Positions 3,546 through 43,998 of a stretch of 56,861 nt of DNA are shown in pieces (the stretch's first letter is position 1; each line of letters starts with the position of its first letter). A program made the position numbers and the translations under genes. The notes below the pieces were generated by a model. That model ran no database searches and had not been told where the DNA came from. It saw only the letters and a list, made by a program, of their open reading frames with translations. The DNA comes from Bdellovibrionota bacterium. Lineage in GTDB: Bacteria; Bdellovibrionota_C; UBA2361; CAKMMH01. The stretch is from assembly GCA_050952645.1 (NCBI GenBank), contig JBMNLI010000004.1, positions 1 to 56,861 of the forward strand, written 5' to 3'.

Positions 3546-3674
3546 ATAACCTACTCAAAATAATTTAAGAAAAGTTAAGAAACACTCACAGGAATTGTTA
3601 AAATAGCTGACGTAAATATGGGAGCACTGTAAAATACGTAGCACTCTCTTTAAGAAACGACAAATAACAAGTCT
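3546..3674. mobile_element. MITE-like family 1, internal fragment
   Basis: aligns with 19316-19420 (ataacctactcaaaataattt...ctttaagaaacgacaaata). Confidence 0.6.
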
Positions 3675-3713
3675 TTAAGCTTAAATATGAGAGGGTTTCG
3701 GGGGGGGGGATTA

Positions 3714-11584: not shown

Positions 11585-11952
11585 AAATTAAGTTTTTTTT
11601 AGTTTTTTACGTTTTTTATGGGGGGAGTTTACCTATATTGATATTTACAGTTTGATTTACTGTTTGATTTATTATTTGATTTACTGTTTTACTTTTACTT
11701 ACTTAAATTTATCTAATTATTCTAATTAGTTATAACTGCTCTAATTTCTAAAGTATTTTTCAAAAAATTCCGTTTAAAAGATAAGTGTGTTTTCTTAAAG
11801 TTTTTCGATATTTTTCTAATTTTTTTTAAGAAAAAATTAAAAATAAACAGAAGCATTACGCATTATATGCAAGATAACTACATAGTTAGAGCCTTGATTT
11901 TTTTCAAAGCTTTGAAGCTTAAGGCTTTATGTGCGGTTTTAAGAAGTATTTA

Positions 11953-13260
11953 ATGAAAAGAGTCTTATTTTATAACATTTATTTTTATAATATTTATAGT
12001 ATATCGATATATAATATAGCTATATTATTATTTAAATTATTATCTGCCATATTATTATTATCCATCATCACATTAAGTTTTGCACTCGATGCGCACTCTG
12101 AGGAGCAAAGCAGGGCATTTTTTACACAAGGGTCTGCTAAGAGTATTTTCCTACCTGAAGCAAAAGTCACTGAAAAACAAGATTTGCAATATTTCAAAGA
12201 AAAAAAAGAGATTAAGAAAGATAGTTCTAAAACTAGTCGAGATGAAGAGTTAATAGCAGAAACTAAGAATGAGAGTTTAGAAAATAATAGTTTAGTTAAA
12301 AATGAAGAAAAAGAGTTAACTCCATCAGGTAAGATTTTAGCAAAGTATGGTAATCCTGAAGAGGATTTAACTTATTACCCTGAAAACAATGCGCCAGCTC
12401 CATTTAAGGGCATTATGGCTGCTCTTCAGATAGGAGATGAGGATTTAGCTTTTAGGTATGCTAAGCAATATATAAATTATACTGCAAAAGAATCTGATTT
12501 AGTAGGAAAGACTATCGCATTTCAAAAGTTAGCCCTAGAGGGAACGGGTAGAGCTGAAGAGGGGCGTTTTTCTAATGATTCTGACGTAGTGCAATATAAG
12601 TATTTATTAGAAAAAGAAAAAGAGCTAAAGGAAAAGAAAGAGAGGGAAGAGAGAGAGCGAAAACTTACTAAGGCTATTAAATTATCTAAATCCGACAAGA
12701 CGTTATTTGATTCATTCGACGATTCTTATAAGGTGCAAATTCAAAGGTCTAATAAGGAAGCAAAAAGCTACTACGATACGCTAGAAGCTAAGAAGCAAGA
12801 AAAGATTGCTAAGGGCGAGCTTGTAGAGGAAAAAGAGAGCGTTGAAGAAAAGAGTGAAAAGTTAATAGAACGAGCAGCGATTAGGAACGAATATCAAGGA
12901 AGAGTCCCTGTAGACCCTGCAGGAGAAGTTAGCATATATTTCTTTTTTAAGCCTAATGAGAAAGCGTCTATAAATTTAGGGATACACGTTGAGGAGTTAT
13001 ATAAAAGTATTATTAAGGATCAAAACGTTCATTTAGTAGGAGTAAATGTTGATGGGTTATCGCTAAATGCGTTTAAGAGGATAACTAAAGCAAATTTTCC
13101 AGTTTTAAATGGGGATAGGTTAGTAAGGCTTATGGGGATAGAGACTTTTCCTAGTATATATTTTAGATGTGAAACCTCAGGTGAAGCTTTTGTATTTAAT
13201 AAGGCTGCTAGAAAGTATGAGTTAAGGGAGATTTTAAGTTTAATGCGAGGCGAAAAATGA
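11953..13260 (+). CDS. exported protein with C-terminal thioredoxin-like fold, TraF/TrbB-like
   Basis: N-terminal hydrophobic helix; C-terminal IYFFFKP...LVGVNVDG...FPVLNGDRLVRLMGIETFPSIYF matches the TraF-type pattern but lacks CxxC; first gene of operon ending in TraG_N. Confidence 0.55.
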   Translation: MKRVLFYNIYFYNIYSISIYNIAILLFKLLSAILLLSIITLSFALDAHSEEQSRAFFTQGSAKSIFLPEAKVTEKQDLQYFKEKKEIKKDSSKTSRDEELIAETKNESLENNSLVKNEEKELTPSGKILAKYGNPEEDLTYYPENNAPAPFKGIMAALQIGDEDLAFRYAKQYINYTAKESDLVGKTIAFQKLALEGTGRAEEGRFSNDSDVVQYKYLLEKEKELKEKKEREERERKLTKAIKLSKSDKTLFDSFDDSYKVQIQRSNKEAKSYYDTLEAKKQEKIAKGELVEEKESVEEKSEKLIERAAIRNEYQGRVPVDPAGEVSIYFFFKPNEKASINLGIHVEELYKSIIKDQNVHLVGVNVDGLSLNAFKRITKANFPVLNGDRLVRLMGIETFPSIYFRCETSGEAFVFNKAARKYELREILSLMRGEK

Positions 13261-15044
13261 TAAAGATGCGGATTAGTAAAAGTAATAGACTACATAATTT
13301 ATTATTTAATAAGCAAAAAGCTTCTAGGCTTAAAATATGCTTACTGTTTTGCATCTGCTTTTTAACGCTCGGCGGTAAGGCTTGGGGGGATTTAATAGTT
13401 AAAGAAAAAGAAGGAGATTCACTAGATCCATTAAAGGAATATAGGGATATAAGTAATAGCTTGTATGTAACTTCTGGTACTGGTGGTGCGGCTGGTGGAA
13501 GAGGTGGGGCACAAGCAGGACCAGTTTCAAATAGTTTAACTGGAGCAAACAGTGGAGTTATACCAGGCGAGGAATTACAAGAATCAAAAATAACCGAAGG
13601 GGAGAGTTTAAAAGTTCAGCAAGGACGGAAACTGTCAAATTTTCATACGTATATTCCTAAAAAGCAATTTGAAAGGATGGTAGACTCCAAAGAGTGGGAA
13701 AAGATTTACGATCAATCGATAAAAGATAATTATGAAGGAATGATTGGCGCTACTACTTGGGGGTTAGCTAACTCCGCCGTTGGGCAGGCAAGATTTAATG
13801 CGATATTACAAGCCCAAAGTGCTCTTTCTAATCACTATATGTCGGAGCTAGCATTTATAAAGCAAGTAGAGCAAAACCCTTATATGAGACAAAGTATAAG
13901 CGATGCATATTTTTCATGTGTAAGAAAGAAAATGAATGATAGTATGAATGATCAAGGTAAAAGATATACTTGGTTTGAAGCGCAAGAGATTTGTATGGGG
14001 GATGAAAGTTCTTTGGGAACTGTTATGACCGTTGGAGGTTTGGATAATATGACACCGAATTTATTTGATTATTCTAGTGTTATCGATAATAAAAATGGTT
14101 TAAAAGATAAGATTTGTTTGTCAGACTATTTGTTTAATCAAGAGGAGAAATCAGAGAGTGGCTCAGATATGGGAAAATTAAAAGAATCATATCAAAAATT
14201 ACTAGGCGATATAGAGTTTAAAATTAAGGAAGGTAATAGTCCATCATCGAATGAACCTATTGGAATGCGAAGTATTGAATATAAATTTTATTACCCAGGT
14301 GAAAGTAGTGAAGAATGTGGTATGAAAAGTACTCAATCTCCATCGGAATTATACTTAGAAACTTTATTGCATCGATATAATGCTTTGGTAATTGAGTTAG
14401 GAACTTTCTGTCAAAAAGTAAAAAGAGAGGCTGAAGGTATAGATGAATTTATAGAAAGGGAAGAATATGCAAGACTACAAGAATATTATAAAGTTGGAGG
14501 ATATATAGTTGACATTCAAACAATAGATAACTTATATAAACTTGCTAATGACACCGCTAAAGTTGCAGATGATGGAAAGGCAGATTGTAGTGTTTTTTCT
14601 GAGTTATTTTTAAGTGATAGTGAAGAATTGCTTTCTTTTGGAAAAGATGAAAGTTCTAGAGGGGGTGGTACTACTAATAAATCATCAAGGTTATATAAAT
14701 CAATTTTGTATAAAATAGCTAAAGGCGTGACGGATATAACGATTTTAAGGCTTTATAATGTTTTTTATACTTACTTGCAAAATACTACGACAGGAACATT
14801 CGGTGTAAATAGTGAAATTTATAGTTTAGTAGAAAAACAATATGAACAAATACTATATATGGTATTAGGAGTTCACAATACATATGCTCCACAGTTTATC
14901 TTCAATAAATTAAAGGAATTTGAAAATATTAATCTTAAAGTCAATGAGCTAATTAATGCTCAAGCTCAGAGTTTTACTGATATGAGAAGGCAAGGAGAGG
15001 ATGCTATAACACAAAATGAGGATTTTGCAGCTCCAAATAAATAA
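13257..15044 (+). CDS. exported Cys-containing protein, putative T4SS assembly protein (TraH position)
   Basis: ATGA overlap with upstream gene; signal peptide ending ..GGKAWG; several Cys; lies between TraF-like and TraG_N-like genes. Function is inferred from position only. Confidence 0.4.
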   Translation: MIKMRISKSNRLHNLLFNKQKASRLKICLLFCICFLTLGGKAWGDLIVKEKEGDSLDPLKEYRDISNSLYVTSGTGGAAGGRGGAQAGPVSNSLTGANSGVIPGEELQESKITEGESLKVQQGRKLSNFHTYIPKKQFERMVDSKEWEKIYDQSIKDNYEGMIGATTWGLANSAVGQARFNAILQAQSALSNHYMSELAFIKQVEQNPYMRQSISDAYFSCVRKKMNDSMNDQGKRYTWFEAQEICMGDESSLGTVMTVGGLDNMTPNLFDYSSVIDNKNGLKDKICLSDYLFNQEEKSESGSDMGKLKESYQKLLGDIEFKIKEGNSPSSNEPIGMRSIEYKFYYPGESSEECGMKSTQSPSELYLETLLHRYNALVIELGTFCQKVKREAEGIDEFIEREEYARLQEYYKVGGYIVDIQTIDNLYKLANDTAKVADDGKADCSVFSELFLSDSEELLSFGKDESSRGGGTTNKSSRLYKSILYKIAKGVTDITILRLYNVFYTYLQNTTTGTFGVNSEIYSLVEKQYEQILYMVLGVHNTYAPQFIFNKLKEFENINLKVNELINAQAQSFTDMRRQGEDAITQNEDFAAPNK

Positions 15045-15176
15045 TGTAATGGTTTATATGGGGGGATATAAAAATATATAAAATTGTTTAAAAGAATTGT
15101 AATAACAAGCAAGCAAATTTTTAGTAAAAGAGAGAAAAATTTTGTGTAAGAGAATGCGTAAAAAGGTATTTATGTA

Positions 15177-15785
15177 ATGGTAGAACAATTATTAGATATA
15201 TTATTAAACATTCAAGATTGCACTGATAAAACTTGTCCTGGTTCTGCATTTACGGCTATAGGAGCTGCTTTTGCTACCCAAGGTTATTATCTTCAATCGC
15301 AAATAGTTAGTGCTTTAGGTGCTGGTAAAATGGAAATGTGGGGTGTTTTTATATACATATTCTCATTTTTTGCATTTACCATAATGATAATTCTAAATGG
15401 GCTTGCCATACCTAAAAACGTAATGTGGTTTATATTAGGTCCTATTTTATTTAACTGGATGGTTTATACTGGCACCGATGTAAAAGGAGTGATGTGGAGA
15501 GTAGGTAATGATAAAAAACTTAATCAACAGAAAGTTTGGGAAATAGCCGAACCTGGATTAAGGAATTTAAGACCTATTAAAGCTGGTGAGCTCGATAAAG
15601 AGAGTGGTGTAGAAGCAACTGTTAATAAATATGACGTTATGGGTTCAATTAGAGTTCCACAGTTATTTGTTTTATGGGATGGATTAATTAGTGATACAGT
15701 AGCACAGCTTTCATCTTGGGTAGGTGTAGATAAAATGTTAGCAGGACATGGTGGAAAAAAGCAACTTAGGGAATACTACTGTTAA
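15177..15785 (+). CDS. TraG_N-like membrane protein, N-terminal part (likely continuous with next ORF)
   Basis: two TM helices, then RVPQLFVLWDGLISDTV; overlaps next ORF at A6 run 15755-15760. Confidence 0.6.
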   Translation: MVEQLLDILLNIQDCTDKTCPGSAFTAIGAAFATQGYYLQSQIVSALGAGKMEMWGVFIYIFSFFAFTIMIILNGLAIPKNVMWFILGPILFNWMVYTGTDVKGVMWRVGNDKKLNQQKVWEIAEPGLRNLRPIKAGELDKESGVEATVNKYDVMGSIRVPQLFVLWDGLISDTVAQLSSWVGVDKMLAGHGGKKQLREYYC

Positions 15786-18700
15786 TTTAAAAAATGACTC
15801 TGCTACTGGTAGCGATAATGAAGATGGTTCTGCGGCAATATTGTCTAATTTAAAATGGTCAAAGCTTCAAGCGATCGTTGGGGCTAGAATTACTACTCCT
15901 GGATTAAAAGATTCTTTTGTAGAGTTTATGGCTGGAAACTGTGGTGGTGTTATTAAACAATCTATAGATGATAGAAAGCTAATTAATGCTAGAAGAAACC
16001 CTGTAAGTTTTCTTAGTGATGCTAACTCAAATGATAAAAAAATTGGTATATTAAAAGACGCTGATAGCTTAGGGACGGATTTAAAAAAAGAGTTTACTAC
16101 AACTCAAGGTTCATTAAAAAGATTGTTAAATACTTGCTCAAAAGAAGAATCTAGTACAAGTGATGGAACCAGTTTATGTCAATTCTTAGGGAACGATATA
16201 AAACCATATACAGAAGCTAAGTTTGATGTGATAGGGTGTGATAAATCGTTTAAAATTATAATGAAAGCTCTAAAATGGGAAACTGGACAAATTTATCATA
16301 AAATGATGGCAGATTGGGATAATGGGGATTCGTCGAAGGAGAAAGAAATTCTAGTTGCTTTTTATTATGGTTGGAATTTAGATAAGAAAAACCCTACCGG
16401 AATCTCAAATAGATTATCAGATGATGAACTTAAATATTTTACTAGAGATTTGATATTGTCTTATATGTTAAGAAATGAGCTTGAGTTTGTTCCTAAAATA
16501 ACTAATGTACAATATAGCACTAAAGTTCAGGCAGAGCAGGCTTCCGATACTCATATTCAATCTTTAGGCTCTCAAAATAAATTTGGTGAGATTTACACTT
16601 GGGCTCGAATGATGCCTTATATTCAAGGTATTTTAATGTTTATTTTAGCTGGGGCTTATCCTATCGTATGTATAATTATGATAATCCCTGGGGCGCATAA
16701 GGCTATACTTACTTGGGCGGCTTTTTGGGCATGGGTAAAATTTTGGGATTTAGGGTTTGCCATAGTTACGGTTATAGAGCGTTCAGTGTGGGGGATGCTT
16801 GGGAACTCAACTCATGCAAGTGCTGTAAATAAAACTTTAGTTGAACTTATAAGTGGCTCTAATGCAACACCAAATGGAATTTCTGGTATTGAGGTTTCTT
16901 GTAATGGTGGGCAATCATTCGGTTCTTGTGCTTATCCTACAATAAGTAGTGAAGGTAGTATGTTTTTGTCTGAAATGTTTGATCAAGGCACAGCGATTGG
17001 TCTTTCGCTTAACTATGGTGTATATAATGGGTATTATATTTATATAATGGCTGCGTTATATATGGCAGTTCCTGTGATTTGTGGGCAAGTTTTTCTTAAG
17101 GGTAAATATGGCGTAGGTAGCCTAGTTTCTACGATGATGGGCGGAGCTGAAAGGGCTGGAGGTGGAGCTGCCGAAACCTCTGCTAAGTCTAGAATAGCTG
17201 CAGATATTTCTAACACTTCCGCTATCGCTGATAGACAAGTTAAAGCAGATGCCGCTAAAAATTACGCTATGCGAGCAATGGAAGCTGGCAATAAAGCCGC
17301 TAAAGAAGGGCTCTTTGCTCAACATATCGGAGCTGCAAATCAGGGGATGGAGTTAAAGAAAGGTATGGCTAATCTCCAGAGTGCCCAGTATAGAGCTTTG
17401 GCATGGCAAATGCAAATGACAGCGCAGGGATTTGCATCGCATAATTTAAGTCCTTTTCCTATGGGAGTGCGAGAGGTAATGAATGCTGCTGCTTTGGCCG
17501 GTCTATGGTCGAATGCTGCTGGTCATCTTCCAAAATCTTTGCTGAATAACAATCAGTTTCCAGAACAGTTAGGGAAATTTCTAGGGGATACAAACATTGC
17601 GGAAGGTTTAACTGAGGAAGTATTATCACCACTAGCAGGTGAATGGAAAGATTTACAAGGTTTTGTGAATGGATTTTTAGAAGGTGATAATGTAGGGGCT
17701 CAACAAGATGAAGAAGGGCAAAATGGTCAACAAAAAGAAGAAGAGAAAAATGCTCAACAATTGGGGGAAGTAATTTTTGGCGCATCGGGTAGTGGTGTTT
17801 CTATTGCAAGTAGTGGTGTAAATACGTCTAGAACAGGTGGTGAAGTTAGAATAGGTCAAGGAAATCAAAAAGTTGGCCCATTTGACTTTGACTTTTTGAA
17901 GTTTCAAAAAGGAATAGCTTGGTCGCTTCCTTTTAGTAATGCATCTTATGTTTATGATTTTAATGTTGCAAATCCATTAAGTGAAGGTGTGTTGCAAGCA
18001 AAAGCAGATAATAATTTATTTTCTTTCGATTCTGGAGCTCAGCAAAATTTACAAAAAGGCTTTGCAGATAGAATGGATACTATGGCTAAGTATGCTGGGG
18101 ATGTAGCAGGCTACGAAATGAAGCAAGATTTAGCTATGTCTAATCAACACTTAGCAGGTGTTTACGGCGTTAACTTAATGCCTCAACAAAAACCTTACGA
18201 TATTAAGGGTATGATGGGTAGTGGGGAGATAGTAAGTAGTGATGGAACTAGTGCAAAAGGTATGTTTGATTTCTTTGGAACTGATAGTACGGTAGGAAGC
18301 GAGTATGGTAATTTAACTAGTGGATATATAGATAAATTACAAGACAATTATGCTAGAAGCCAAATAGGAATAGGAAGTTTCAATAATTTACCGTATAGTA
18401 AAGTCGCTGATCATTCTACTGTCCAATATTATCTCTATCCCAGTGTAGGTGGTGCACTTTCTTATGGCGATGAAAATAACGTGGCAAATGTTAAAGGAAC
18501 CACTGCTGCTTCAACGTATGGAAGAGGATTAGGTCTTCTTGATGAGTTTAGGCGAGGGGTTGTTGAAGGTGTAAATGAGTCACAAAATCAATCTAATTCT
18601 AGTGAACAAAGTCAAAGTACAGCTCCAGCAATTAATAGTTCTCAAGTTTTTAGTGGACAAAATCAAAGCGAGGTTCCAGCAGCTAATAATAATTCTCAAG

Positions 18701-18861
18701 TTTCTAACGGACAAAGTCGAAGCGTGGTTCTAGCAGCTAATGATAGTTCTCAAGTTTCTAGCAAACAAAGTCAAAACGAGGTTCCAGCAACTAATAATTC
18801 CCCAGTAGCTACCAGAACTAATTCTTCAGCTACTACAACAAAGAGCGACAAAGAATATTAA
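15748..18861 (+). CDS. TraG_N (F-type TraG / VirB6-like) mating-pair stabilisation protein, main part
   Basis: WARMMPYIQGILMFILAGAYPIVCIIMIIP...TWAAFWAWVKFWD and YMAVPVI match the TraG_N TM block; followed by Ala/Gly-rich C-terminal region. Confidence 0.72.
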   Translation: MVEKSNLGNTTVNLKNDSATGSDNEDGSAAILSNLKWSKLQAIVGARITTPGLKDSFVEFMAGNCGGVIKQSIDDRKLINARRNPVSFLSDANSNDKKIGILKDADSLGTDLKKEFTTTQGSLKRLLNTCSKEESSTSDGTSLCQFLGNDIKPYTEAKFDVIGCDKSFKIIMKALKWETGQIYHKMMADWDNGDSSKEKEILVAFYYGWNLDKKNPTGISNRLSDDELKYFTRDLILSYMLRNELEFVPKITNVQYSTKVQAEQASDTHIQSLGSQNKFGEIYTWARMMPYIQGILMFILAGAYPIVCIIMIIPGAHKAILTWAAFWAWVKFWDLGFAIVTVIERSVWGMLGNSTHASAVNKTLVELISGSNATPNGISGIEVSCNGGQSFGSCAYPTISSEGSMFLSEMFDQGTAIGLSLNYGVYNGYYIYIMAALYMAVPVICGQVFLKGKYGVGSLVSTMMGGAERAGGGAAETSAKSRIAADISNTSAIADRQVKADAAKNYAMRAMEAGNKAAKEGLFAQHIGAANQGMELKKGMANLQSAQYRALAWQMQMTAQGFASHNLSPFPMGVREVMNAAALAGLWSNAAGHLPKSLLNNNQFPEQLGKFLGDTNIAEGLTEEVLSPLAGEWKDLQGFVNGFLEGDNVGAQQDEEGQNGQQKEEEKNAQQLGEVIFGASGSGVSIASSGVNTSRTGGEVRIGQGNQKVGPFDFDFLKFQKGIAWSLPFSNASYVYDFNVANPLSEGVLQAKADNNLFSFDSGAQQNLQKGFADRMDTMAKYAGDVAGYEMKQDLAMSNQHLAGVYGVNLMPQQKPYDIKGMMGSGEIVSSDGTSAKGMFDFFGTDSTVGSEYGNLTSGYIDKLQDNYARSQIGIGSFNNLPYSKVADHSTVQYYLYPSVGGALSYGDENNVANVKGTTAASTYGRGLGLLDEFRRGVVEGVNESQNQSNSSEQSQSTAPAINSSQVFSGQNQSEVPAANNNSQVSNGQSRSVVLAANDSSQVSSKQSQNEVPATNNSPVATRTNSSATTTKSDKEY
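18590..18800 (+). repeat. 51-54 bp degenerate tandem repeat encoding S/Q/N-rich tail
   Basis: repeated PAANxxSQVSxxQSQxEV units. Confidence 0.8.
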
Positions 18862-19020
18862 TACGAACACGGGGTCTGATTATGGCTTTAGTGCAACTAG
18901 TTTTGTTAGACAGCAGAAATAATTGGATATGGGAGTATCAACAAAACTTTCTAAAATTAAAAATTTTAAATTTGTAAAGTTCGTAAATTTATAGTATTTA
19001 TTAGAATCTAATTTATTTAC

Positions 19021-19239
19021 GTTCTTTGCGTTTTAAGGTGGGTTTTAGACCTTAAGAATTAGTATCACTCACCCACGAAGCCTAAAAGAAAATTGACTTT
19101 AAGGAAATTTGCATAAAATAAATTACTTTAAATATAGTTTTAATTTTTCTTTAAACTATAGCTAGTTTTCTATAAAAGCCGAATTTTCTTTTAAGCTAAC
19201 AAAAAAACTATTTTTCTAATCAATCAAAACGTAAAGAAC
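19021..19239. mobile_element. repeat family 2 element with inverted ends
   Basis: left GTTCTTTGCGTTTT, right AAAACGTAAAGAAC. Confidence 0.5.
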
Positions 19240-19280
19240 CACAAAATTATTTTTAATCCTTTAGGCTTTTTTTCTTTTAT

Positions 19281-19487
19281 CTTAAACTTTACGTATAAAA
19301 TTTAATTTTAACTTTATAACCTACTCAAAATAATTTTAAAAAAACTAAGAAACATTCACGTAAATTATTAAAATAGTGGGCGTAGATACGTATTCTTTAA
19401 GAAACGACAAATACCAGTCTTAGGCTAAGTTTGGAGCTCTTAAAAAACATAGTATACGTAAAACAAGTGAAAGTTTAGGTTTTATTT
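19281..19487. mobile_element. MITE-like family 1, most complete copy (about 200 bp)
   Basis: left end matches 36393-36470, right end matches 29102-29204; right end is the reverse complement of the left end seen at 36393-36424. Confidence 0.65.
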
Positions 19488-19659
19488 TTATTCTTTCACT
19501 TTTTTTCTTATTCTTTCTCTTTTCTCTTTTTTCTTTCTTTATTTTTTCTTTTATTTTCTTTCTCTTTTCCCTTACTCTTTCTTTTGCTTTTTTTTCTTTT
19601 ACTCTTTCTTCTACTTTTAATTTAAGTTTTTTATTTTAAAGTGCTGTTTTTAAAATCCT

Positions 19660-21987
19660 TTAAGCTTCTTTTCTTCTGCTTTCTTCTTCTTTCTTTATTC
19701 TAGAATAATCTAAATAGTAAAGGTTAGCTTGGATATTGTCTGTATTAGAATATATATAAGTTAAGAAAAACTCGGTAATAGTAGCATTTCTTATAGCTAG
19801 CTCCTCACAAAGCCTTAATACTATATGAAGCCTATTAGAGTTTTCCTCTTCAAAACTTTCCCACCATTTTTTAGCACTCCCAGAGGTGTTGCTCCAATCT
19901 AACTTCTTTTTAGTGTCGAGAATTTTATCTTGTATTTGCTCGTCCGTCCAACCAGATATATCTGAAATGCCATCAGGAAGACCGCTAGAACTACCCTCAT
20001 TTGAATCTCCATAAAGTATCTCTGGGTCTTTTTCAATATACTCTATAGGCTTATCCCTTAATTTTACTACTATAGACTCAGAGTCCTCAATCTTCTTTCG
20101 CATCTCAGGAATTTTATAGTAAGGCGTTAAATAGCCTTGAAATACTGGAGTCCCTGGAACGAAAAAAGTATTTATATTGTCCGTTGGACGCCCTACCTCA
20201 TCTGGAGTAAGCACGGCTCTTTGCTGAACTTGCTCCTGCGTATTGTCGTTTTTACTAGCAAACATCTCAGTAAGCTTCTGGTTAGAACCCGAGGAAGAAG
20301 TGTTAAACCTAATGGTCATTTGCCCAGTTTCCTTTGAAGCCCATTCGGAGTCGACCATGTCTAAAGGTGGCATAAAGATTTTAGAGGTAAAACCTGCTAG
20401 CACAGAGTCTGCATCGTCGCCATAATTGGCCTTTACTTGAGCCGTCGATTGAATGGCTCCGACTATACTTATATTCCTAGAACGTAAAGTGTTTAACTTA
20501 ACATGAATATCTGGAAGCCTACCTAAAGCACTCGCAAACTCGTCTATTACTAGCCCTACGGGTCTTGGAAGCGTAACCTGAGGGCACTTTTCAGCATACT
20601 TAGTTAAGAACCTTAAAATCTCTACTATTATAACGTTCCCCATAGGCCTTAACATTTCAAGCTCAGACTCCCTAAGCTCCACTATAAGTAGTGTAGGTTC
20701 CTTAATAACTTGCTCTAAGTCTAACTCATCAAAAGCCGTAGTAGCCCTTATGGCTTTTAAATCCCACTGAGAAATACGCATACTAAGTTCAGATAAGATG
20801 GTGTCTGCATTTTGAGATCCGTTTCTTGCAAGCTCCACAAAGGTTCTAGTGTTTCTAATAGCCTCAGGATGAGCCTCAAGCCAATCGCAAAGCCCTTTCA
20901 TACCAGATTGCACTAACTCGTGAACTCTCGGCATAGAAAGAACCTCATCTGGGTCATGCAAAAGCCCTATCATTATAGCATTTAAAACGGCTAGAGCGTT
21001 AGTTCTAAAAAACGGACTATCGGATTTTGCACTCGGATTATCCGTCGCCATAATAAGAGTGTTAGCTATCAGCTTAGCGTCCGTATCATCTTCAATCTTA
21101 CTTAAAATATTCCAGCTTAAGCCCCTCTCCGTATCTAATGGATTAAATAAAAGAATTTTTCTATCTGGATTATATTTTTTAGAAAGCCCTGCAAGCTTCG
21201 ACCACATCTCAGGCTTAGAGTCTAAAATAATAACGGACCTATTCGGACTCATTACATCGTTGTAAAGTATTGGTAAAATAAGCTTTGTAGTCTTACCACC
21301 ACCAGTTTTTGATACCGCTAATATGTGCCTATTTCTATCTCCATTTGCCCATATGATATGCCCTTGCTTTAACACTACACCATCACTTCCCCTAAGGTTC
21401 GTTACGGGAAGAGCAGTGTCGGTTCTAGGGTCTTTTGGTTTAGTCCACTCTAAAATTTGAGCCCTGTTAGCTAAGTCCCCAGAGCCAAGCTCATTGCTTT
21501 TTGATCGCATCGGTCTTTGAAGTTGCTTTTCGCCTAAAAGCTCACTAATATCTAATTTAAAAGCCGCTTCAACACCACCTTCTCTTAAAGTAGTTCTGAA
21601 AAAATATATAAGCCAAAAAAGATACGTATAAAATCCAAAAGCTATAATCTCTTCAATCACTACACGCTTTTCTTTAGCTCCTACGAGAATATAAAAAATT
21701 GGCTCTAAAATAGATGCACTCGGTGTTTCACTAGTGCCATTAGCTATCCTTTCTAAGATGCTAGTAATATCTTTAGATATCTTATCTCCATTAAATGCTA
21801 TCGCAGCACAGATTGCAAGTAGTATAAGCCCTATAACGCCAGGGATTTTGCTAGCTAGCTTGCTTCTTTTAAATTGAATTACTATGCAAGCTATAGCTAG
21901 AGGAAGAAGAATAAAAACGCCTACAAGCTCTAGATGCACATAAAATTGAACAAATTTTAATATAAAACTTTCTATTATTAAAAACAT
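19660..21987 (-). CDS. virD4: type IV secretion coupling protein (VirD4/TraG family ATPase) with extra C-terminal domain
   Basis: N-terminal TM helices; Walker A SKTGGGKT; ILDSKPE; FNPLD; Walker B LVIDEFA; LRSRNISIVGAIQSTAQVKANYG; QRAVLTPDEV. Confidence 0.88.
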   Translation of the reverse strand: MFLIIESFILKFVQFYVHLELVGVFILLPLAIACIVIQFKRSKLASKIPGVIGLILLAICAAIAFNGDKISKDITSILERIANGTSETPSASILEPIFYILVGAKEKRVVIEEIIAFGFYTYLFWLIYFFRTTLREGGVEAAFKLDISELLGEKQLQRPMRSKSNELGSGDLANRAQILEWTKPKDPRTDTALPVTNLRGSDGVVLKQGHIIWANGDRNRHILAVSKTGGGKTTKLILPILYNDVMSPNRSVIILDSKPEMWSKLAGLSKKYNPDRKILLFNPLDTERGLSWNILSKIEDDTDAKLIANTLIMATDNPSAKSDSPFFRTNALAVLNAIMIGLLHDPDEVLSMPRVHELVQSGMKGLCDWLEAHPEAIRNTRTFVELARNGSQNADTILSELSMRISQWDLKAIRATTAFDELDLEQVIKEPTLLIVELRESELEMLRPMGNVIIVEILRFLTKYAEKCPQVTLPRPVGLVIDEFASALGRLPDIHVKLNTLRSRNISIVGAIQSTAQVKANYGDDADSVLAGFTSKIFMPPLDMVDSEWASKETGQMTIRFNTSSSGSNQKLTEMFASKNDNTQEQVQQRAVLTPDEVGRPTDNINTFFVPGTPVFQGYLTPYYKIPEMRKKIEDSESIVVKLRDKPIEYIEKDPEILYGDSNEGSSSGLPDGISDISGWTDEQIQDKILDTKKKLDWSNTSGSAKKWWESFEEENSNRLHIVLRLCEELAIRNATITEFFLTYIYSNTDNIQANLYYLDYSRIKKEEESRRKEA

Positions 21988-27728: not shown

Positions 27729-29102
27729 ATGGGAAAATTTATACCAAAAATTGCTATTATAGGAAGAACTAATGTAGGAAAATCTACGCTATTTAATGCG
27801 ATAGCGGGAAGAAGAATAGCAATAGTAGAGGATGCCCCTGGGGTTACTAGAGATAGGGCTTATGCCATGGTAAATATGCAAGGGTTTACATTTAATTTAA
27901 TAGACACTGGGGGGCTAGTAGGCGATGAAAAAGACGATTTTCAAACGGATATTTCGGAGCAAGCAAGAATTGCTATCTCTCAAGCAGATGCTATATTAGC
28001 TGTTTTTGATGGGAAAGTAGGGGTGCATCCTCTAGATAGAGAGGTTGTAAAGTCGCTCTATGGAGTGAAAAAGCCTGTAATTTGGGTAATAAATAAGTGT
28101 GAAAAAGAGTCGGATGCACTTTCTGCAACAGATTTTTATTCTTTAGGGATAGATAGTTATATATGTATAAGTGCTGCGCATAATATTGGTGTAAGAGAGG
28201 TTATAGCGGAAGTTAAAACGTATTTCGATAAGAAAATTTTAGAAAATGAAAATATAGAAGATAACTCTATAAGAGTTGCTGTTGTAGGGAAACCTAATGC
28301 TGGAAAATCTACTCTAATAAATTTATTAGTAGGTGAAAAAAGACTTATCACATCTGAAATCTCAGGAACTACTAGAGATAGTATAGAGGTAAATGTAAAA
28401 TCAAAAGGGCAAGATTATATTTTAATCGATACTGCTGGGCTAAGAAAAAAAGCAAAGGTTGAAGATGGCACCGTTGAAGAGTATGGAACTATTCGCTCGA
28501 TAGAGGCTCTAGCTAATGCAGATGTAGCGATTTTGCTTTTAGATGCTAGTCAAAAAAAAGTTGCAACCTCTCAAGATCAAAAAATAGCTGGGCTTATTCA
28601 CGATAGGGGAATTCCTTTTATTATAGCAGTTAACAAGTGGGATTTAGTAGAAAAGGATCATAAGACCGTTAAAGAGTTTGAAAAAGATATTTATGATATT
28701 TTTAAGTTTGCTAGATACGTTCCTATTATATATATTTCTGCGACTCAAGGGAAAAGGTGTGCAAAGCTTCTTCCTAAAGCAAAAGAGGTTTACGAAAATG
28801 CTAGACATAGAATAACTACAGGAACGCTCAATAGGGTTATAAATAATGCTTTTAGCAAGCGTCCACCTACGCCATATAGAGGGCAAATTATTAAGGTATA
28901 TTTTTCAACTCAAATTTCAGTAGCTCCTCCTACGTTTGTTATATTTGTAAACCATCCAAAGAGTTTGCACTTTTCATATTTAAGGTATATTAAAAACGAG
29001 ATAAGAAATGAATTTTCTTTTGAAGGCTCTAATATAAAAGTTATAGTTAGAAAGCGAAATGAAAAGGGAGAAGATGATAACTTAGAGGTTGTAGAAGGGT
29101 AA
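27729..29102 (+). CDS. der: ribosome biogenesis GTPase Der
   Basis: two G domains (GRTNVGKS/DTGG/NKCE; GKPNAGKS/DTAG/NKWD) plus KH-like PPTFVIFVN. Confidence 0.97.
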   Translation: MGKFIPKIAIIGRTNVGKSTLFNAIAGRRIAIVEDAPGVTRDRAYAMVNMQGFTFNLIDTGGLVGDEKDDFQTDISEQARIAISQADAILAVFDGKVGVHPLDREVVKSLYGVKKPVIWVINKCEKESDALSATDFYSLGIDSYICISAAHNIGVREVIAEVKTYFDKKILENENIEDNSIRVAVVGKPNAGKSTLINLLVGEKRLITSEISGTTRDSIEVNVKSKGQDYILIDTAGLRKKAKVEDGTVEEYGTIRSIEALANADVAILLLDASQKKVATSQDQKIAGLIHDRGIPFIIAVNKWDLVEKDHKTVKEFEKDIYDIFKFARYVPIIYISATQGKRCAKLLPKAKEVYENARHRITTGTLNRVINNAFSKRPPTPYRGQIIKVYFSTQISVAPPTFVIFVNHPKSLHFSYLRYIKNEIRNEFSFEGSNIKVIVRKRNEKGEDDNLEVVEG

Positions 29103-29204
29103 GATGCGTATTTACTAAGGAACAACAAATACCAGTCTTAGGCTAAGTTTTAACTCTTAAAAAACATAGTATACGTATAACAAGAAAAAGTTTGGGTTTA
29201 ATTA
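29102..29204. mobile_element. MITE-like family 1, right half
   Basis: acaaataccagtcttaggctaagttt...ctcttaaaaaacatagtatacgta.aacaag shared with 19384-19487. Confidence 0.7.
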
Positions 29205-37041: not shown

Positions 37042-38346
37042 ATGTTTGAAAAATATTTAGAGAGTGTAGGGTTTTATAATTTTAATAATAGTTTTGATAA
37101 GCTAATTGTAAAAGCTAGGGAGATGGCAAAGAATACTTTTAAAAAAGAGTATAGTGGAGATAATGCCTTTTCAAATGAAGAAAGTAAAATAAAAATAGAT
37201 AAATATTCAAAAGCCTCTAATATAAAAGGTTGCATATTAGTTATAGATATAGGTGGCACGCATACGAAGTGTGCAGTTTTTGAAAACGAAGAGCCAACTT
37301 TTTTATTTGATGAAGATAATGATTGGTTTAAAGGCAAAAGCTTAGATTATAAGTTAGGCTTAGAAAACTTTATAAATACCATAGCTAAAAATATAAAAAC
37401 AAAATATAAAAATTACTCTAATATTTCAGGACTAGCTATAGTTTGGTCTAATGCTATAAGGGCAGTAAATGTAGAAAATAAAGATTACACTGGCATTTCA
37501 GGCGTTACTATCGGGGTAAACTCTTGCTTTTACGAAAAAGGCGAATGGTTTAACGATGATTTATACGATGATTACGACTTAGGTGAAGCTTTTTATAATA
37601 TTTTTTCTAAAAAAGGAATAAAAATATCTACAATTATAATAGCTAACGATACTGTGTTTACATTAAAAGCCTTAGAGTTTGCTGATGCTGGCGTCGTTAT
37701 CTCGTCTGGGGCTAATGCTACGGGAATAGGGGACGATAATACTATATATAACTTAGAGTCGGGAGCAATGTTTAAATTAAATAGAGACGAGCTATCCCTA
37801 GTAGACCCTTTTAAAGATGAGTTTATGCTACAATATTTATGCGCAGGTAAGTGGCAACATATTTTTTTAAAAGAATACATAATCGCCGCTAGCAAGTATG
37901 GAATAAAAGAATTCGATAATTTCGCAAAAGATTTAGAGAAAAATAATTTTCTAGTAGTGCAAGATATGTCGAGCAGTTTATATGGGGATTTTCCTTATAA
38001 AGAAAAATATGAGGAAGCTAAAGAATGTTTCTTTAAATTATGTAAGGCTTTAGAGCGTAGAGCCGCTCTTGCTGGCGCTCTTTTAGTTTACACTTCGATA
38101 GCAAATAGAGTAGCAAATAGAGTAGATGGAGAAAAATATTTTAAAATCGCCTTAGATAGTGGCGTAGCGAGGCATTTGCCATCGTTTTTTAAATATTTAA
38201 AGGAAGACTTAGATAAAATTATAAAAAATGTCGATAATAACGTCGATAATGATGTCGATAAAAAAGTCGATATTATTTTATTAGAACCTAAGGGACACGT
38301 AACGGTTCCTATGTTTGGTGCATATAATTCAGTAAGGAAGTATTAA
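37042..38346 (+). CDS. hexokinase (Hexokinase_1/2 family), divergent
   Basis: VIDIGGTH phosphate-1 motif, ANDTV, ISSGANA, YNLESG, ERRAALAG. Confidence 0.75.
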   Translation: MFEKYLESVGFYNFNNSFDKLIVKAREMAKNTFKKEYSGDNAFSNEESKIKIDKYSKASNIKGCILVIDIGGTHTKCAVFENEEPTFLFDEDNDWFKGKSLDYKLGLENFINTIAKNIKTKYKNYSNISGLAIVWSNAIRAVNVENKDYTGISGVTIGVNSCFYEKGEWFNDDLYDDYDLGEAFYNIFSKKGIKISTIIIANDTVFTLKALEFADAGVVISSGANATGIGDDNTIYNLESGAMFKLNRDELSLVDPFKDEFMLQYLCAGKWQHIFLKEYIIAASKYGIKEFDNFAKDLEKNNFLVVQDMSSSLYGDFPYKEKYEEAKECFFKLCKALERRAALAGALLVYTSIANRVANRVDGEKYFKIALDSGVARHLPSFFKYLKEDLDKIIKNVDNNVDNDVDKKVDIILLEPKGHVTVPMFGAYNSVRKY

Positions 38347-39553: not shown

Positions 39554-39765
39554 TAAAATATAACACAAGTTAAAGCGAAGTTATAATAAGGATGCAAATT
39601 AAACACCGTTTGCTAAAAACGCTCTAGTCTAAATTAAATGTTTTATTGTAATATGTCGATAGACTTCATCGTAAAAGAATTCTGCAATGCGATAGGTCTT
39701 ATTTGAATTCTTTTTTAAAAATTTTAAAATTTAAATTATTTTTTGCAAAAGGAAAGTTAAGCTAT

Positions 39766-42700
39766 ATGAATTATTTATTTGAGGTTAGTTGGCAAGTTTG
39801 TAATAAAGTAGGGGGCATCAATACGGTTATCAATTCAAAAGCCTATGAGGCTATAAAAGAATATAAAGATAGATATATTCTTTTTGGTCCATTGTTAGAC
39901 GAAAACCAAGATTTTTTAGAATGTAAAGATGATGAGTTTTTAGAAATAAAAAACGTTTTAAACGATATAGGCATTCATTATAAAGTCGGCAAGCTAAATA
40001 TAAAAGGCGATAAGCCACTAGTAATTTTAATAGATTATAAAAACAGATACGAGGTTAATAAACTTCTTTATAGCTACTGGAAAGACTTTGGAATAGACTC
40101 TTATGGTGCCGAGTTGGATTTTATAGAGCCCGCACTTTTTGGAACTGCAGTAGGAGAGGCAGTAGTTTCTCTATATAAAAAATTGATAACTAATAAAAAT
40201 GATAAAATGATTCTACATTGCCATGAGTGGAAAACTGGAACTACACTTTTGTACGTTAAAAAACACGTATCTGAAATAGGAACCGTTTTTACTCCCCACT
40301 CAACGACCGTTGCTAGAGTGCTTGCAAATAAAACAAAAGACTTAAGTAGTGAGTTAGATAACATTAATGCTACGCAAGTAGCAAAAACTTATGGTGTTGC
40401 CCCAAGACATTTGCTAGAGAGCGCGGCAGTTACGAAAGCAGATTGCGTAACTACTATAAGCGAGCACGTTAGCAAAGAAATATACCAAGTCTACGATAAA
40501 AAGGTAGATTTTACCATAGGCAATGCTTTATCTTACTTAGAAAAGGATGATAATTTAAACGATAAAAATAAGAAAGAAAATAGAGAGTTTTTGCTAGATT
40601 TTTGTAGAAAATTTCTAAAAAAAGATTTGCCTGAAAATACGAGAATATTTTTAATGTCTGGAAGATGTGAGTTTGAAAATAAAGGCTATGATGTATTTTT
40701 AGAAGCATTAGCAAAATTAAATGATACTATAAAATCTGATGCATCGCTTCCTCCAGTTGTAGCGTTGTTCTTAGTATCTGCTGGGGATAAAGGGGTGCAC
40801 GATAGCGTAAGAAAGAGAGTAAAAGAGGGTAAGACTACCGAAGGAACAGTTGGAATTACTACTCATAGACTTAACGATGAGGGACATAATCCCATAGTAG
40901 ATAGTTGTTATAGATTGGGCTTACAAAACGCACCAGAAAATAAAGTAAATATAATTTTTTCCCCAGCTTTTTTAGATGGCTTAGATGGAGCTTTCGATAA
41001 AACTTATTTAGAAATTTTAAGAGGCGTAGACTTAGGAGTATTTCCATCTCTTTACGAGCCTTGGGGATATGCTCCACTAGAAAGTATGGCAGAAGGCGTG
41101 CCTGCGATTACCTCAGATGTTTCAGGAATTGCTGAATGGGCGATGAGTTTAAAAAATCACGACGGGCTTTATCTCTTAGGCAGAAAAGGAAAAAGCAAAG
41201 AGGAGGTTATAGATAGTCTTGAGGATATACTTTTAGATTTTTTAAAGAAGACTCAAAGTGAAATTTCCGCTCTAAATAATTTTGCGTATAGTTTGGCTAG
41301 AAAGGCTAATTGGAAAGATTCATTTCATTTATACATAGATGTTTATAATAAATCTTTAGAGGTAGCAGAAAAAAGATTTGATATTCTTGACTCGTCTGAT
41401 AGACAAATAGCTAAGGATGATAGAAATGCAAAGCCTTACTATCGTTCTTTTTCGGTCGTTTCAGATTTGCCTGAAGAGATAAATAAAATTTACGATTTAG
41501 CTTATAATTTATGGTGGTCTTGGAGTCCTGATGCTAGAGAGCTTTTCAATATGTTAGGTGGGGATCTTTGGGTAGAATGTGGATGCAACCCAGTTAAGAT
41601 GCTAAATAGTTTATCGTCTGATGCGGTTGCTAATAAGTGCAAAGATGAAAATTTTATCAAGCTATATAACTCTGTAATACGAGAGTTTGAAGTGTATATG
41701 AACGATAAAACTTCTTATGCAAAAGCCGAAGATAAATCTAGCGATACGGAGCCGATAGCATATTTTTCTATGGAATACGGGCTTCATGAGTGTATGCCTA
41801 TTTACTCTGGAGGATTAGGAGTTCTATCTGGTGATCATTTAAAATCTGCCTCAGATATCAATATTCCTTTGATAGGTGTTGGGCTTTTTTATAGAGAAAC
41901 TTATTTTAAGCAAGTCATAGATCATAATGGCTACCAACAAGAAGAGTATATTAAGCAAGACCGCTCGATGCTTCCTATGAAAGCACTGCTAGATGAAAAC
42001 GCTAATGAAGCAAAAGTTTGTGTTCAGCTTCCAGGAAGAAATTTGTATTTAAGAGTTTGGGTAGTAAATGTAGGTAGAATAAAATTGTACTTACTAGACT
42101 CAGATTGTGAAGAAAATGAGCTAATGGATAAAGGCTTAACTGCTAGGCTTTATGGTGGAGATAGACGCACAAGGATAAAGCAAGAGATAGCTTTAGGAAT
42201 TGGTGGCGTTAGACTTTTAAGAGATGTCTTAAAGTTATCTCCTAGCGTATACCATTTAAATGAGGGGCATTGTGCTTTTTCAGTTCTAGAAAGAATGCAT
42301 CGCTTAATGAAAGAAAGGGGCTTAAATTACCAAGAAGCTAGAGAGGCGGTAAAGGCATCAACGGTATTTACTACGCATACGCCAGTTCCTGCTGGGAATG
42401 AAGTGTTCGAGTTTGATTTGCTCAAATATTACTTATATAGCTACGTAGATAGACTTCAAATTAGTTGGGAAGAATTTATAGAGCTAGGTTGTGAAAATCA
42501 TATAGGTGATACAGATAAATTTTCTATGACCGTTTTAGCGTTAAAGTTAAGTTCTAAAGCTAATGGCGTTGCGAAGCTTCATGGTGTAGTAAGTAGAAAT
42601 ATGTGGCAAAACGTTTGGAAAGGAGTAAACGAAGAAGATTTGCCAATATTTTCTATTACTAATGGAATTCACACTCAAACTTGGCTAAGCAATAATATGA

Positions 42701-43998
42701 GAAAACTATTTAACAAGTATACTCAGATAAAATGGGGTATAAACGATGACTCATTTGAAGCTTGGGAAAAGGTGCAAGATATTCCGAATGAAGAATTCTG
42801 GGCAGTTAAGTTAGATCAAAAACAAAAGTTTATAGATAGAATAAAAAATAAAATAAGAAAAGACTACGCTAAGAGAGGAGAGAGCAAAGATTATATTGAA
42901 ATGGTTGTAAATAACTTAAGAGCAGATGTTTTAACTATAGGCTTTGCGAGAAGATTTGCAACTTACAAAAGGTCTGACTTGTTTTTAAGAGATTGGGAAA
43001 GGATAGTAAATATTTTATCTAATGATGAGCGCCCTGTGCAAATTATAGTGGCAGGAAAGGCACATCCTCAAGATATTGCTGGAAAGGAAATAATCGAGCG
43101 TATAGTGGTTGCCACTCGAGATCCGCGTTTAAGAGGAAGAGTAGTGTTCCTTGAAAACTACGATATGGGAATAGGTAGACTACTTACTAGGGGCGTTGAC
43201 GTGTGGATGAATAATCCTGTAAGACCTCACGAAGCTTCAGGCACATCTGGTATGAAAGTTTGTCCTAACTTGGGTATAAATTTTTCTATTTTAGATGGCT
43301 GGTGGGACGAGGGATATAGTGAAGATGTAGGTTTTAAAATAGACTCTGGAAAACATTTTGATAATAGAGATTACCAAGATGATATAGATAATAAAACACT
43401 TTTAGATGTTCTAGAAAATCAAATTATCCCTATGTATTACGCTAGGAATGATAAAGGGTATTCCGATGAGTGGTTCAGGATCGCAAAAAATTCAGTTAAA
43501 AAATTAAGTCCATACTTTAGCACTCAAAGAATGCTAAAAGAGTATTACGACTTAAGCTATGAACCGACTGCTCTAAGAGCAAATACGCTTTTTGCAGACG
43601 ACTACAAAGAGTTAAAAGCACTTACTAGCTGGAAGAGACGAGTATCTAATACTTTCTCAACGGTTCAGATAGTTAAATTAAATGTTGAAGGAATTTCTAG
43701 CGATTTAATGCCTGCAGGAGGAACGGTAGTAGCTACTATGCTCGTAAATCCAGGGCGTCTTAATAAAGACGAGCTACTAGCGGAGTTTGTGCTATTAAAA
43801 AGAACAGATAATAATAAGAAAGATGGGTTAAACGCTATGCCATTAGAGATTAAAGAAGTTAAGAAAGATGGAAGTATAGAATATACTACTACATTTGAGA
43901 TTTCTGAAAGTGGCAATTATTCTTATGCTGTAAGGATTATGCCTTATAATAAGCATTTAGCTTCGAGGCAAGAAACTGGGTTAATCTGCTGGGGATAA
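39766..43998 (+). CDS. fused glycogen synthase (GT3) - alpha-glucan phosphorylase (GT35)
   Basis: N-half FEVSWQVCNKVGGI, HEW, NKGYD, PSLYEPWGY; C-half LAYNLWWSW, EYGL..YSGGLG.L.GD.LKSASD, NEGH, ARRFATYKR, EASGTSGMK. Confidence 0.93.
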   Translation: MNYLFEVSWQVCNKVGGINTVINSKAYEAIKEYKDRYILFGPLLDENQDFLECKDDEFLEIKNVLNDIGIHYKVGKLNIKGDKPLVILIDYKNRYEVNKLLYSYWKDFGIDSYGAELDFIEPALFGTAVGEAVVSLYKKLITNKNDKMILHCHEWKTGTTLLYVKKHVSEIGTVFTPHSTTVARVLANKTKDLSSELDNINATQVAKTYGVAPRHLLESAAVTKADCVTTISEHVSKEIYQVYDKKVDFTIGNALSYLEKDDNLNDKNKKENREFLLDFCRKFLKKDLPENTRIFLMSGRCEFENKGYDVFLEALAKLNDTIKSDASLPPVVALFLVSAGDKGVHDSVRKRVKEGKTTEGTVGITTHRLNDEGHNPIVDSCYRLGLQNAPENKVNIIFSPAFLDGLDGAFDKTYLEILRGVDLGVFPSLYEPWGYAPLESMAEGVPAITSDVSGIAEWAMSLKNHDGLYLLGRKGKSKEEVIDSLEDILLDFLKKTQSEISALNNFAYSLARKANWKDSFHLYIDVYNKSLEVAEKRFDILDSSDRQIAKDDRNAKPYYRSFSVVSDLPEEINKIYDLAYNLWWSWSPDARELFNMLGGDLWVECGCNPVKMLNSLSSDAVANKCKDENFIKLYNSVIREFEVYMNDKTSYAKAEDKSSDTEPIAYFSMEYGLHECMPIYSGGLGVLSGDHLKSASDINIPLIGVGLFYRETYFKQVIDHNGYQQEEYIKQDRSMLPMKALLDENANEAKVCVQLPGRNLYLRVWVVNVGRIKLYLLDSDCEENELMDKGLTARLYGGDRRTRIKQEIALGIGGVRLLRDVLKLSPSVYHLNEGHCAFSVLERMHRLMKERGLNYQEAREAVKASTVFTTHTPVPAGNEVFEFDLLKYYLYSYVDRLQISWEEFIELGCENHIGDTDKFSMTVLALKLSSKANGVAKLHGVVSRNMWQNVWKGVNEEDLPIFSITNGIHTQTWLSNNMRKLFNKYTQIKWGINDDSFEAWEKVQDIPNEEFWAVKLDQKQKFIDRIKNKIRKDYAKRGESKDYIEMVVNNLRADVLTIGFARRFATYKRSDLFLRDWERIVNILSNDERPVQIIVAGKAHPQDIAGKEIIERIVVATRDPRLRGRVVFLENYDMGIGRLLTRGVDVWMNNPVRPHEASGTSGMKVCPNLGINFSILDGWWDEGYSEDVGFKIDSGKHFDNRDYQDDIDNKTLLDVLENQIIPMYYARNDKGYSDEWFRIAKNSVKKLSPYFSTQRMLKEYYDLSYEPTALRANTLFADDYKELKALTSWKRRVSNTFSTVQIVKLNVEGISSDLMPAGGTVVATMLVNPGRLNKDELLAEFVLLKRTDNNKKDGLNAMPLEIKEVKKDGSIEYTTTFEISESGNYSYAVRIMPYNKHLASRQETGLICWG

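Follow-up and report, generated by a model that had tools for sequence, protein, structure and literature searches.

A chromosomally fixed, vertically inherited F-like type IV secretion system in an uncultured bacterial phylum, with a possible role in protein delivery

Domesticated type IV secretion systems (T4SSs) define the lifestyles of the Rickettsiales and the Legionellales. The rvh T4SS of the Rickettsiales is chromosomally fixed, lineage-wide and dispersed, as is the system described here, but it is P/VirB-type, whereas ours is F-like. Among T4SSs linked to contact with other cells, that of Vampirovibrio is T-type and lies partly on plasmids with relaxases, that of the Patescibacteria is monoderm-type and that of Xanthomonas is VirB-type. 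A part in predation or host contact has been proposed or shown for Vampirovibrio chlorellavorus (excerpted text of PMC4451040) and for the T4SS of the Patescibacteria and the killing T4SS of Xanthomonas (PMC12102498 and PMC6536674). Here we analyse an F-like T4SS whose traF-traH-traG-like operon lies, facing a VirD4-family ATPase, in the window, a stretch of 56,861 nucleotides that is the entire contig C4 (JBMNLI010000004.1) of the genome under study, G000 (GCA_050952645.1; C-numbers denote contigs and L-numbers the loci read). We find that this T4SS is chromosomally fixed, phylum-wide, vertically inherited and dispersed in G000. It is best read as a domesticated F-like T4SS. With TraN and TraU not found, it is no canonical system of mating-pair formation type F (MPF_F), and on the features tested it is no conjugative element either. 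We suggest, at a probability of roughly 0.55, that the machine delivers proteins rather than DNA into contacted cells, whether prey or host.

The G000 genome has 1.95 Mb, a GC content of ~31% and a completeness of 93.75%. Phylum counts refer to 78 genomes at least 90% complete or 110 genomes at least 80% complete, taken from a GTDB phylum search that yielded genomes of one class only, the same as that of G000. We take the class of G000 and its relatives to be UBA2361. According to the accessible part of PMC13200544, UBA2361 was removed from Bdellovibrionota in GTDB R226. Among the homologous proteins, some carry the label Oligoflexia or Ca. Dadabacteria. The window region occurs in four metagenome runs, with digester, bioreactor and landfill as sources. 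The genes of the system in the window are the following open reading frames (ORFs):

11929..13260, forward strand: ORF1, TraF-like exported protein of 443 aa, whose N-terminal part has a hydrophobic segment and whose C-terminal thioredoxin-like domain lacks CXXC
13257..15044, forward strand: ORF2, exported, Cys-containing, fast-evolving protein of 595 aa in the traH position, overlapping ORF1 by 4 nt
15177..15785, forward strand: 5' piece of a traG/VirB6-like gene, 202 aa, matching the N-terminus of single-frame homologues
15748..18861, forward strand: 3' piece of the traG/VirB6-like gene, 1037 aa, with a membrane core and a low-complexity, variable C-terminal tail
19660..21987, reverse strand: VirD4-family coupling ATPase of 775 aa (Pfam, NCBIfam), with two to three N-terminal membrane segments and a conserved helical C-terminal domain of ~100 aa

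Further parts lie elsewhere in the genome:

C17:60746-71277: core operon, in the order p129, traL-position gene, traE, traK, traB, traV, lipoprotein, traC, two small genes, bPH_2, SH3, M23
C17:55656-71277: core operon together with the core-linked ATPase region
C12:349998-350396: pilin-like gene, with a signal-peptide-like leader and two hydrophobic segments

The distribution of these parts carries the main finding. VirB4/TraC was found in 78/78 genomes of the more complete set and in 108/110 of the wider one, almost always as a single copy and with 54-90% identity for full-length matches; the two genomes missing it, G071 (82% complete) and G036 (89%), both have traG. The TraG-like family is present in 74/78 genomes and VirD4 in 100/110. 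The machine parts of G000 are mostly single-copy. Building trees for 30 genomes, chosen for full-length TraC and VirD4, we compared these proteins with RpoB. TraC shares 15/27 splits with RpoB, VirD4 shares 13/27, and TraC and VirD4 have 15/27 in common, against a maximum of 3 in 1000 shuffles. The RpoB, TraC and VirD4 trees all recover the same 8/9 multi-member families and a clade of the genomes outside the taxonomic order of the window, and the TraC tree is as long as that of RpoB (7.09 and 7.06). Because the TraC and VirD4 trees track RpoB, we conclude that the machine has been inherited vertically. The ratio of nonsynonymous to synonymous substitution (dN/dS) ranges over 0.05-0.35 against the congener G001, dS being near saturation and the ratios thus rough.

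The core operon has an F-like character. In G000, TraC matches TraC_F_IV (E 3e-14) and VirB10/TraB matches TrbI (E 2e-13), both over the cut-off, and the best-scoring model for TraC is the F-type one (E 1e-56). TraE is also over the cut-off; TraK_C (E 1e-4) and TraV (E 7e-3) are below it, yet they stand in the canonical order. TraN and TraU were each found in 0/5 genomes, with a positive E. coli control, and phmmer was negative for them in G000; TraW/TrbC gave one weak, unlinked phmmer match there (E 0.0016). The relatives' core loci that were read have the same gene order, G041 excepted. In that genome (L123, G041:C2; small-genome family f22) traC is isolated among housekeeping genes. No traG was found in 2/2 genomes of family f22 (80-85% complete), possibly through further dispersal or loss. 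The pilin-like gene ends the core operon in 9/17 relatives' loci and occurs in up to three copies; its family matches TrbC/VirB2 below the cut-off in 2/9 homologues. G004 and G035, which belong to the same family, have a second F-H-G module directly upstream of their core operon, and this ties the operon type of the window to the core.

The first-pass annotation of this DNA had placed the cluster between truB and lolA-rimO at about positions 11,953 to 21,987, and the ORFs and Pfam matches, with truB on one side and lolA-rimO on the other, agree. Its view that composition does not break here is borne out by the GC content at third codon positions (GC3), 0.22-0.32 in five ORFs of the cluster vs 0.20-0.27 in seven flanking housekeeping genes, which is host-like. 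Scanning 32 window ORFs, we likewise see no relaxase, VirB4, pilin or integrase among them. The "very large TraG_N-like membrane protein" stands as a member of a TraG-like family, while in this assembly it is two overlapping ORFs. The idea of a dispersed, chromosomally fixed F-like T4SS also holds: VirB4, TraB and, weakly, TraK are all on C17, the parts are near-universal in related metagenome-assembled genomes (MAGs) and under purifying dN/dS, and their trees are RpoB-like. The genes are thus neither strain-specific nor, one traG frameshift apart, decaying, and we found no integrative and conjugative element (ICE) with a relaxase around them.

We checked the identity of each gene in the operon. 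The true start of ORF1 is probably near 11953-12000. Thioredoxin_8 matches 11/17 members of its family, and the family profile aligns with seven plasmid TraF proteins at 94% probability (E 1.3e-7) over 91 columns, in the thioredoxin part only; the Pfam TraF match has E 0.17 and occurs in 1/17 members. Any thioredoxin might align to TraF there, so the identity of ORF1 leans partly on gene position, ORF1 being upstream of traG in 16/16 relatives' loci. ORF2 is likely, though not established, to be TraH. By ESM language-model features its nearest clusters carry TraH (PF06122) in 10-16% of members (score 0.93). Pfam and NCBIfam gave no family for ORF2 and none common to its family members. Its AlphaFold2 model has a predicted local distance difference test score (pLDDT) of 57.5, and an atlas structure search with ORF2 and with a 636-aa protein described below returned template-modelling (TM) scores <0.3 by query, the models being low-confidence. 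Between ORF1 and traG, 12 of the 16 relatives' loci have one ORF2-sized gene and 1 has two; another 2 have a pair of shorter ORFs, and 1 has no gene there. The congener G001 has ORF2 in tandem duplicate (L056:11542-15019). For traG, the TraG_N match in the window is weak (E 8e-5, under the cut-off) and is found in 5/17 family members, and hhalign pairs the family with six plasmid TraG proteins at 93.5% (E 2.3e-7). A profile search of 1.84 billion proteins returned 843 TraG-family matches, without names.

Outside the order of the window, traG takes another form. All 20/20 genomes there have 5-10 TraG matches each, and in 7/7 loci read, five tandem traG-like genes come after those in the ORF1 and ORF2 positions. 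A tree was built from 41 proteins, 33 of them array copies (two copies spanning locus ends were excluded); in it the copies cluster by array position with support of 0.989-1.0, and within a genome they are 19-27% identical. The central pentamer is formed by VirB6 in R388 and by DotA in Dot/Icm, as described in the accessible text of PMC12857230. Because these proteins are pentameric, a natural reading is that each ring position in the five-copy arrays would be filled by its own paralogue. One gene in one order and five in others would make a natural experiment on the composition of the VirB6 ring.

Divergent from the core operon lie a membrane protein of 636 aa that fits no known family (C17:58099-60009) and an 800-aa ATPase, whose sole significant PDB match is Legionella DotL (E 1.1e-11). 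This core-linked ATPase is present in 38/41 genomes, in one of them at 35% identity only, and is always paired with the adjacent 636-aa protein. It was not found in family f21, where VirD4 is the only one found of the two coupling ATPases. The 636-aa partner showed no sequence or feature match to DotM, and a PDB sequence search with it and with a 159-aa protein gave nothing significant. A third coupling-ATPase-like protein of 1014 aa, DUF87/TrwB-like and with weak C-terminal leucine-rich repeats, is encoded 20 kb from the core (C17:88625-91669, reverse strand; L034:2626-5670).

We favour protein delivery because several features parallel host-interaction systems: conservation like that of RpoB with no relaxase found, the loss of mating-pair genes, a DotL-related ATPase with a fixed partner, and the VirB6 arrays. 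Between protein delivery and DNA transfer, both of which the first-pass annotation had allowed, the evidence leans to protein. In such a machine, TraG/VirB6 would form a five-membered central platform, from one gene in the order of the window and from five paralogues in the others. The TraF- and TraH-like proteins would help assembly in the periplasm, TraC/VirB4 would be the power source, and the SH3 and M23 proteins would open the cell's own wall. The two coupling ATPases would recruit substrates, probably different sets.

Several observations weigh against this picture. No effector was identified, and Ank_2 has no match in G000, vs 1-7 in each of four relatives. No relaxase of the MOBH, MOBF, MOBP or MOBQ families was found in G000; MOBC, MOBV and MOBT were not searched, and a divergent relaxase could escape. 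Conjugative TrbC and SXT TraD models give the core-linked ATPase equal scores (E 1e-14), and a 61%-identical homologue is on a cyanobacterial plasmid. A 159-aa soluble protein of no known family (C3:53679-54155, reverse strand) is kept across the lineage at 57-74% identity. TraH identity of ORF2 is weak by hhalign (17 columns only, E 0.057), and the traG pieces overlap in different frames, with a break at a six-A run near 15755 in this assembly. Well-supported deep splits between families conflict at 3-6 pairs. Finally, virD4 is nowhere firmly linked to the other parts, and its assignment to the machine is by co-occurrence. The plasmid homologue stands alone beside a protelomerase gene on the Leptolyngbya boryana linear plasmid pLBX (L125:14866-16935), which suggests transfer of the core-linked ATPase between this lineage and cyanobacteria. 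ATP/ADP translocase (TLC) was found in 0/5 genomes; the control was silent too, so this result is uninformative.

Some of these points would suit a machine that moves nucleic acid, by chromosomal DNA export, conjugation, or DNA or RNA uptake out of the contacted cell, via an unrecognised processing protein. F-type ancestry and the pilin-like gene agree with this, both coupling ATPases are from families known in DNA transfer, and the core-linked one has its plasmid homologue. The 159-aa protein usually adjoins the core-linked ATPase or the core operon in relatives, and its alignment, read by eye, looks like a duplicated beta-strand/helix unit. However, four relaxase families were not found in G000, three of them are sporadic across the 78 genomes (MOBH 0, MOBF 4, MOBP 15) and MOBQ was found in 0/5 genomes; families and orders stay unmixed in the gene trees, and TraN and TraU of mating-pair systems were not found. 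One tblastn relaxase match, at C10:207113, was rejected, as it covers only residues 372-763 of a TrwC-locus protein, past the relaxase domain. We consider nucleic-acid transfer unlikely and keep it as a serious alternative because effectors were not found, ankyrin repeats have no match in G000, and a very conserved 159-aa protein usually sits beside the ATPase in relatives.

A second alternative concerns the VirD4 of the window. This protein has three Pfam matches over the cut-off, T4SS-DNA_transf (E 3e-38), TrwB_AAD_bind and TraG-D_C, its motifs are intact (Walker A from residue 227, Walker B from 479), as noted in the first pass, and its dN/dS is ~0.05. Two proposals of the first pass did not hold. 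A hybrid in which VirD4 replaces TraD does not fit, as the lineage keeps both coupling ATPase types, a TraD/TrbC/DotL-type ATPase adjoining the core operon. We also rejected the operon and virD4 as one conserved module, since the adjacency is in no relative's locus examined: virD4 is in 0/16 of the relatives' traG loci, whose flanking genes vary from locus to locus, and traG-operon genes are in none of 12 virD4 loci (flanks up to 10 kb, some short). In the congener, traG and virD4 have different neighbours. We therefore read the convergence of traG and virD4, seen only in G000, as a recent rearrangement. The spacer holds two multi-copy repeat families that had been overlooked, the first like a miniature inverted-repeat transposable element (MITE):

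19021..19241, no strand: dispersed MITE-like repeat whose terminal inverted repeat is imperfect (14/17 nt); 36 near-full-length copies on 10 contigs
19288..19480, no strand: second dispersed repeat, right end approximate; 14 near-full-length copies on 8 contigs

It is plausible that these repeats caused the rearrangement. Both MITE-like families are scattered across the spacers of the genome, and also occur at window 3546-3675 and 29102-29197.

The window VirD4 could then lie outside this T4SS and have another function, the two units being unrelated and adjacent by chance. The separate traG and virD4 loci of relatives speak for this, as does the absence of VirD4 from 10/110 genomes, nearly all of them with TraC, and the sharing of its C-terminal domain with a ClpX-like protein and others. 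Against it, VirD4 is co-distributed and co-phylogenetic with TraC, lies no more than ~20 kb from the core in three genomes (G021, G051 and G052), directly before the pilin-like gene in G021, and is present in f21, where the other ATPase was not found. For these reasons we infer that the window VirD4 serves the F-like T4SS, and hold its separation from the machine to be doubtful. The C-terminal helical domain (residues ~670-775; window ~21680-19660, reverse strand) is possibly a substrate- or adaptor-binding module. In relatives it occurs in a ClpX-like ATPase and two other proteins (L101:4414-6882, L100:4057-5235, L102:1869-2507), once as a tandem pair, and two further matches lie in the VirD4 of G048 and G049.

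The machine could also be an attachment pilus or adhesion pad with little translocation, the variable TraG tails and paralogues being surface recognition modules, as the C-termini of Anaplasma VirB6-3 and VirB6-4 lie exposed on the surface (accessible text of PMC7648143). The pilin-like gene, in up to three copies, fits as well. However, there are two coupling ATPases with intact motifs and under strong purifying selection, and coupling proteins act as receptors for substrates and not as pilus factors; we therefore find the adhesion role improbable.

We also examined the traG break. The copies of 15 aligned relatives are single frames of 993-1221 aa, and traG also looks split in one other MAG, G020. 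Each piece has a dN/dS of ~0.14. In another strain, one contig of 549 nt (depth 4.6) has one base fewer at 15755, a low-depth difference that may be an error; in the remaining runs, X1 contigs end at the site without bridging, and X2 and X5 have no coverage there. Because relatives have single frames, both pieces are under purifying dN/dS and the other-strain contig is open, the break is either a slip of the assembly or a strain-level event of very recent date. We rejected programmed -1 frameshifting at the A run: although the motif lies in frame, the ORF that follows belongs to the +1 frame, and in the -1 frame a stop comes within two codons. If the frameshift is real, the machine of this strain may be impaired. 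That the genes are a decaying or strain-specific ICE remnant, as the frameshift and the repeats at the junction might hint, is very improbable and is contradicted at the lineage level by phylum-wide presence, RpoB-like trees, the dN/dS of the traG pieces, host-like composition and variable housekeeping neighbours, although inactivity is possible in this one strain. Elsewhere in the window are a 1431-aa glycogen synthase/phosphorylase fusion (39703-43998) and, nearby, a hexokinase-like gene (37042-38346).

Searching the literature for the lineage names and Bdellovibrionota with T4SS terms, we found no description of this system, coverage of subscription journals being incomplete. More tentatively than for protein delivery itself, we picture a phylum-level lineage built around an undescribed domesticated F-like injector, with two parallel coupling ATPases and a five-paralogue or single-gene ring, for feeding on or parasitising cells. 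An F-like T4SS in 78/78 genomes, with an ATPase evolving as slowly as RpoB, gives a first concrete handle on the lifestyle of an uncultured phylum. The window adds an operon form with a single traG, the second coupling ATPase and evidence that the two are adjacent only incidentally, and raises the question of what need one machine would have for two coupling ATPases.

In comparison with known systems, the F-type ones (MPF_F: F, SXT/R391, IncC, IncHI) share with the present T4SS the traL-position/E/K/B/V/C order, a separate traF-H-G operon, a TraC best matched by the F-type model, a TraD-type ATPase and a core operon without a VirB11-like gene. The present system differs in being chromosomal and phylum-wide, with no relaxase, TraN or TraU found and a TraC only 21-26% identical to plasmid TraC. 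It has a second, VirD4-type ATPase and extra lipoprotein, bPH_2, SH3 and M23 genes, and its candidate pilin is nearer TrbC/VirB2 by a weak match. Legionella Dot/Icm (type IVB) offers DotL, the only significant PDB match of the core-linked ATPase; DotL is paired with the membrane protein DotM, a pairing comparable to that of our ATPase with the adjacent 636-aa protein. Here, however, the core is Tra-like, no DotM homology was detected in the partner and no effector repertoire was found. As to rvh, the window's order differs in its single traG; the likeness lies in the four to five tandem virB6 paralogues with long variable extensions that the accessible text of PMC7648143 describes in the Rickettsiales.

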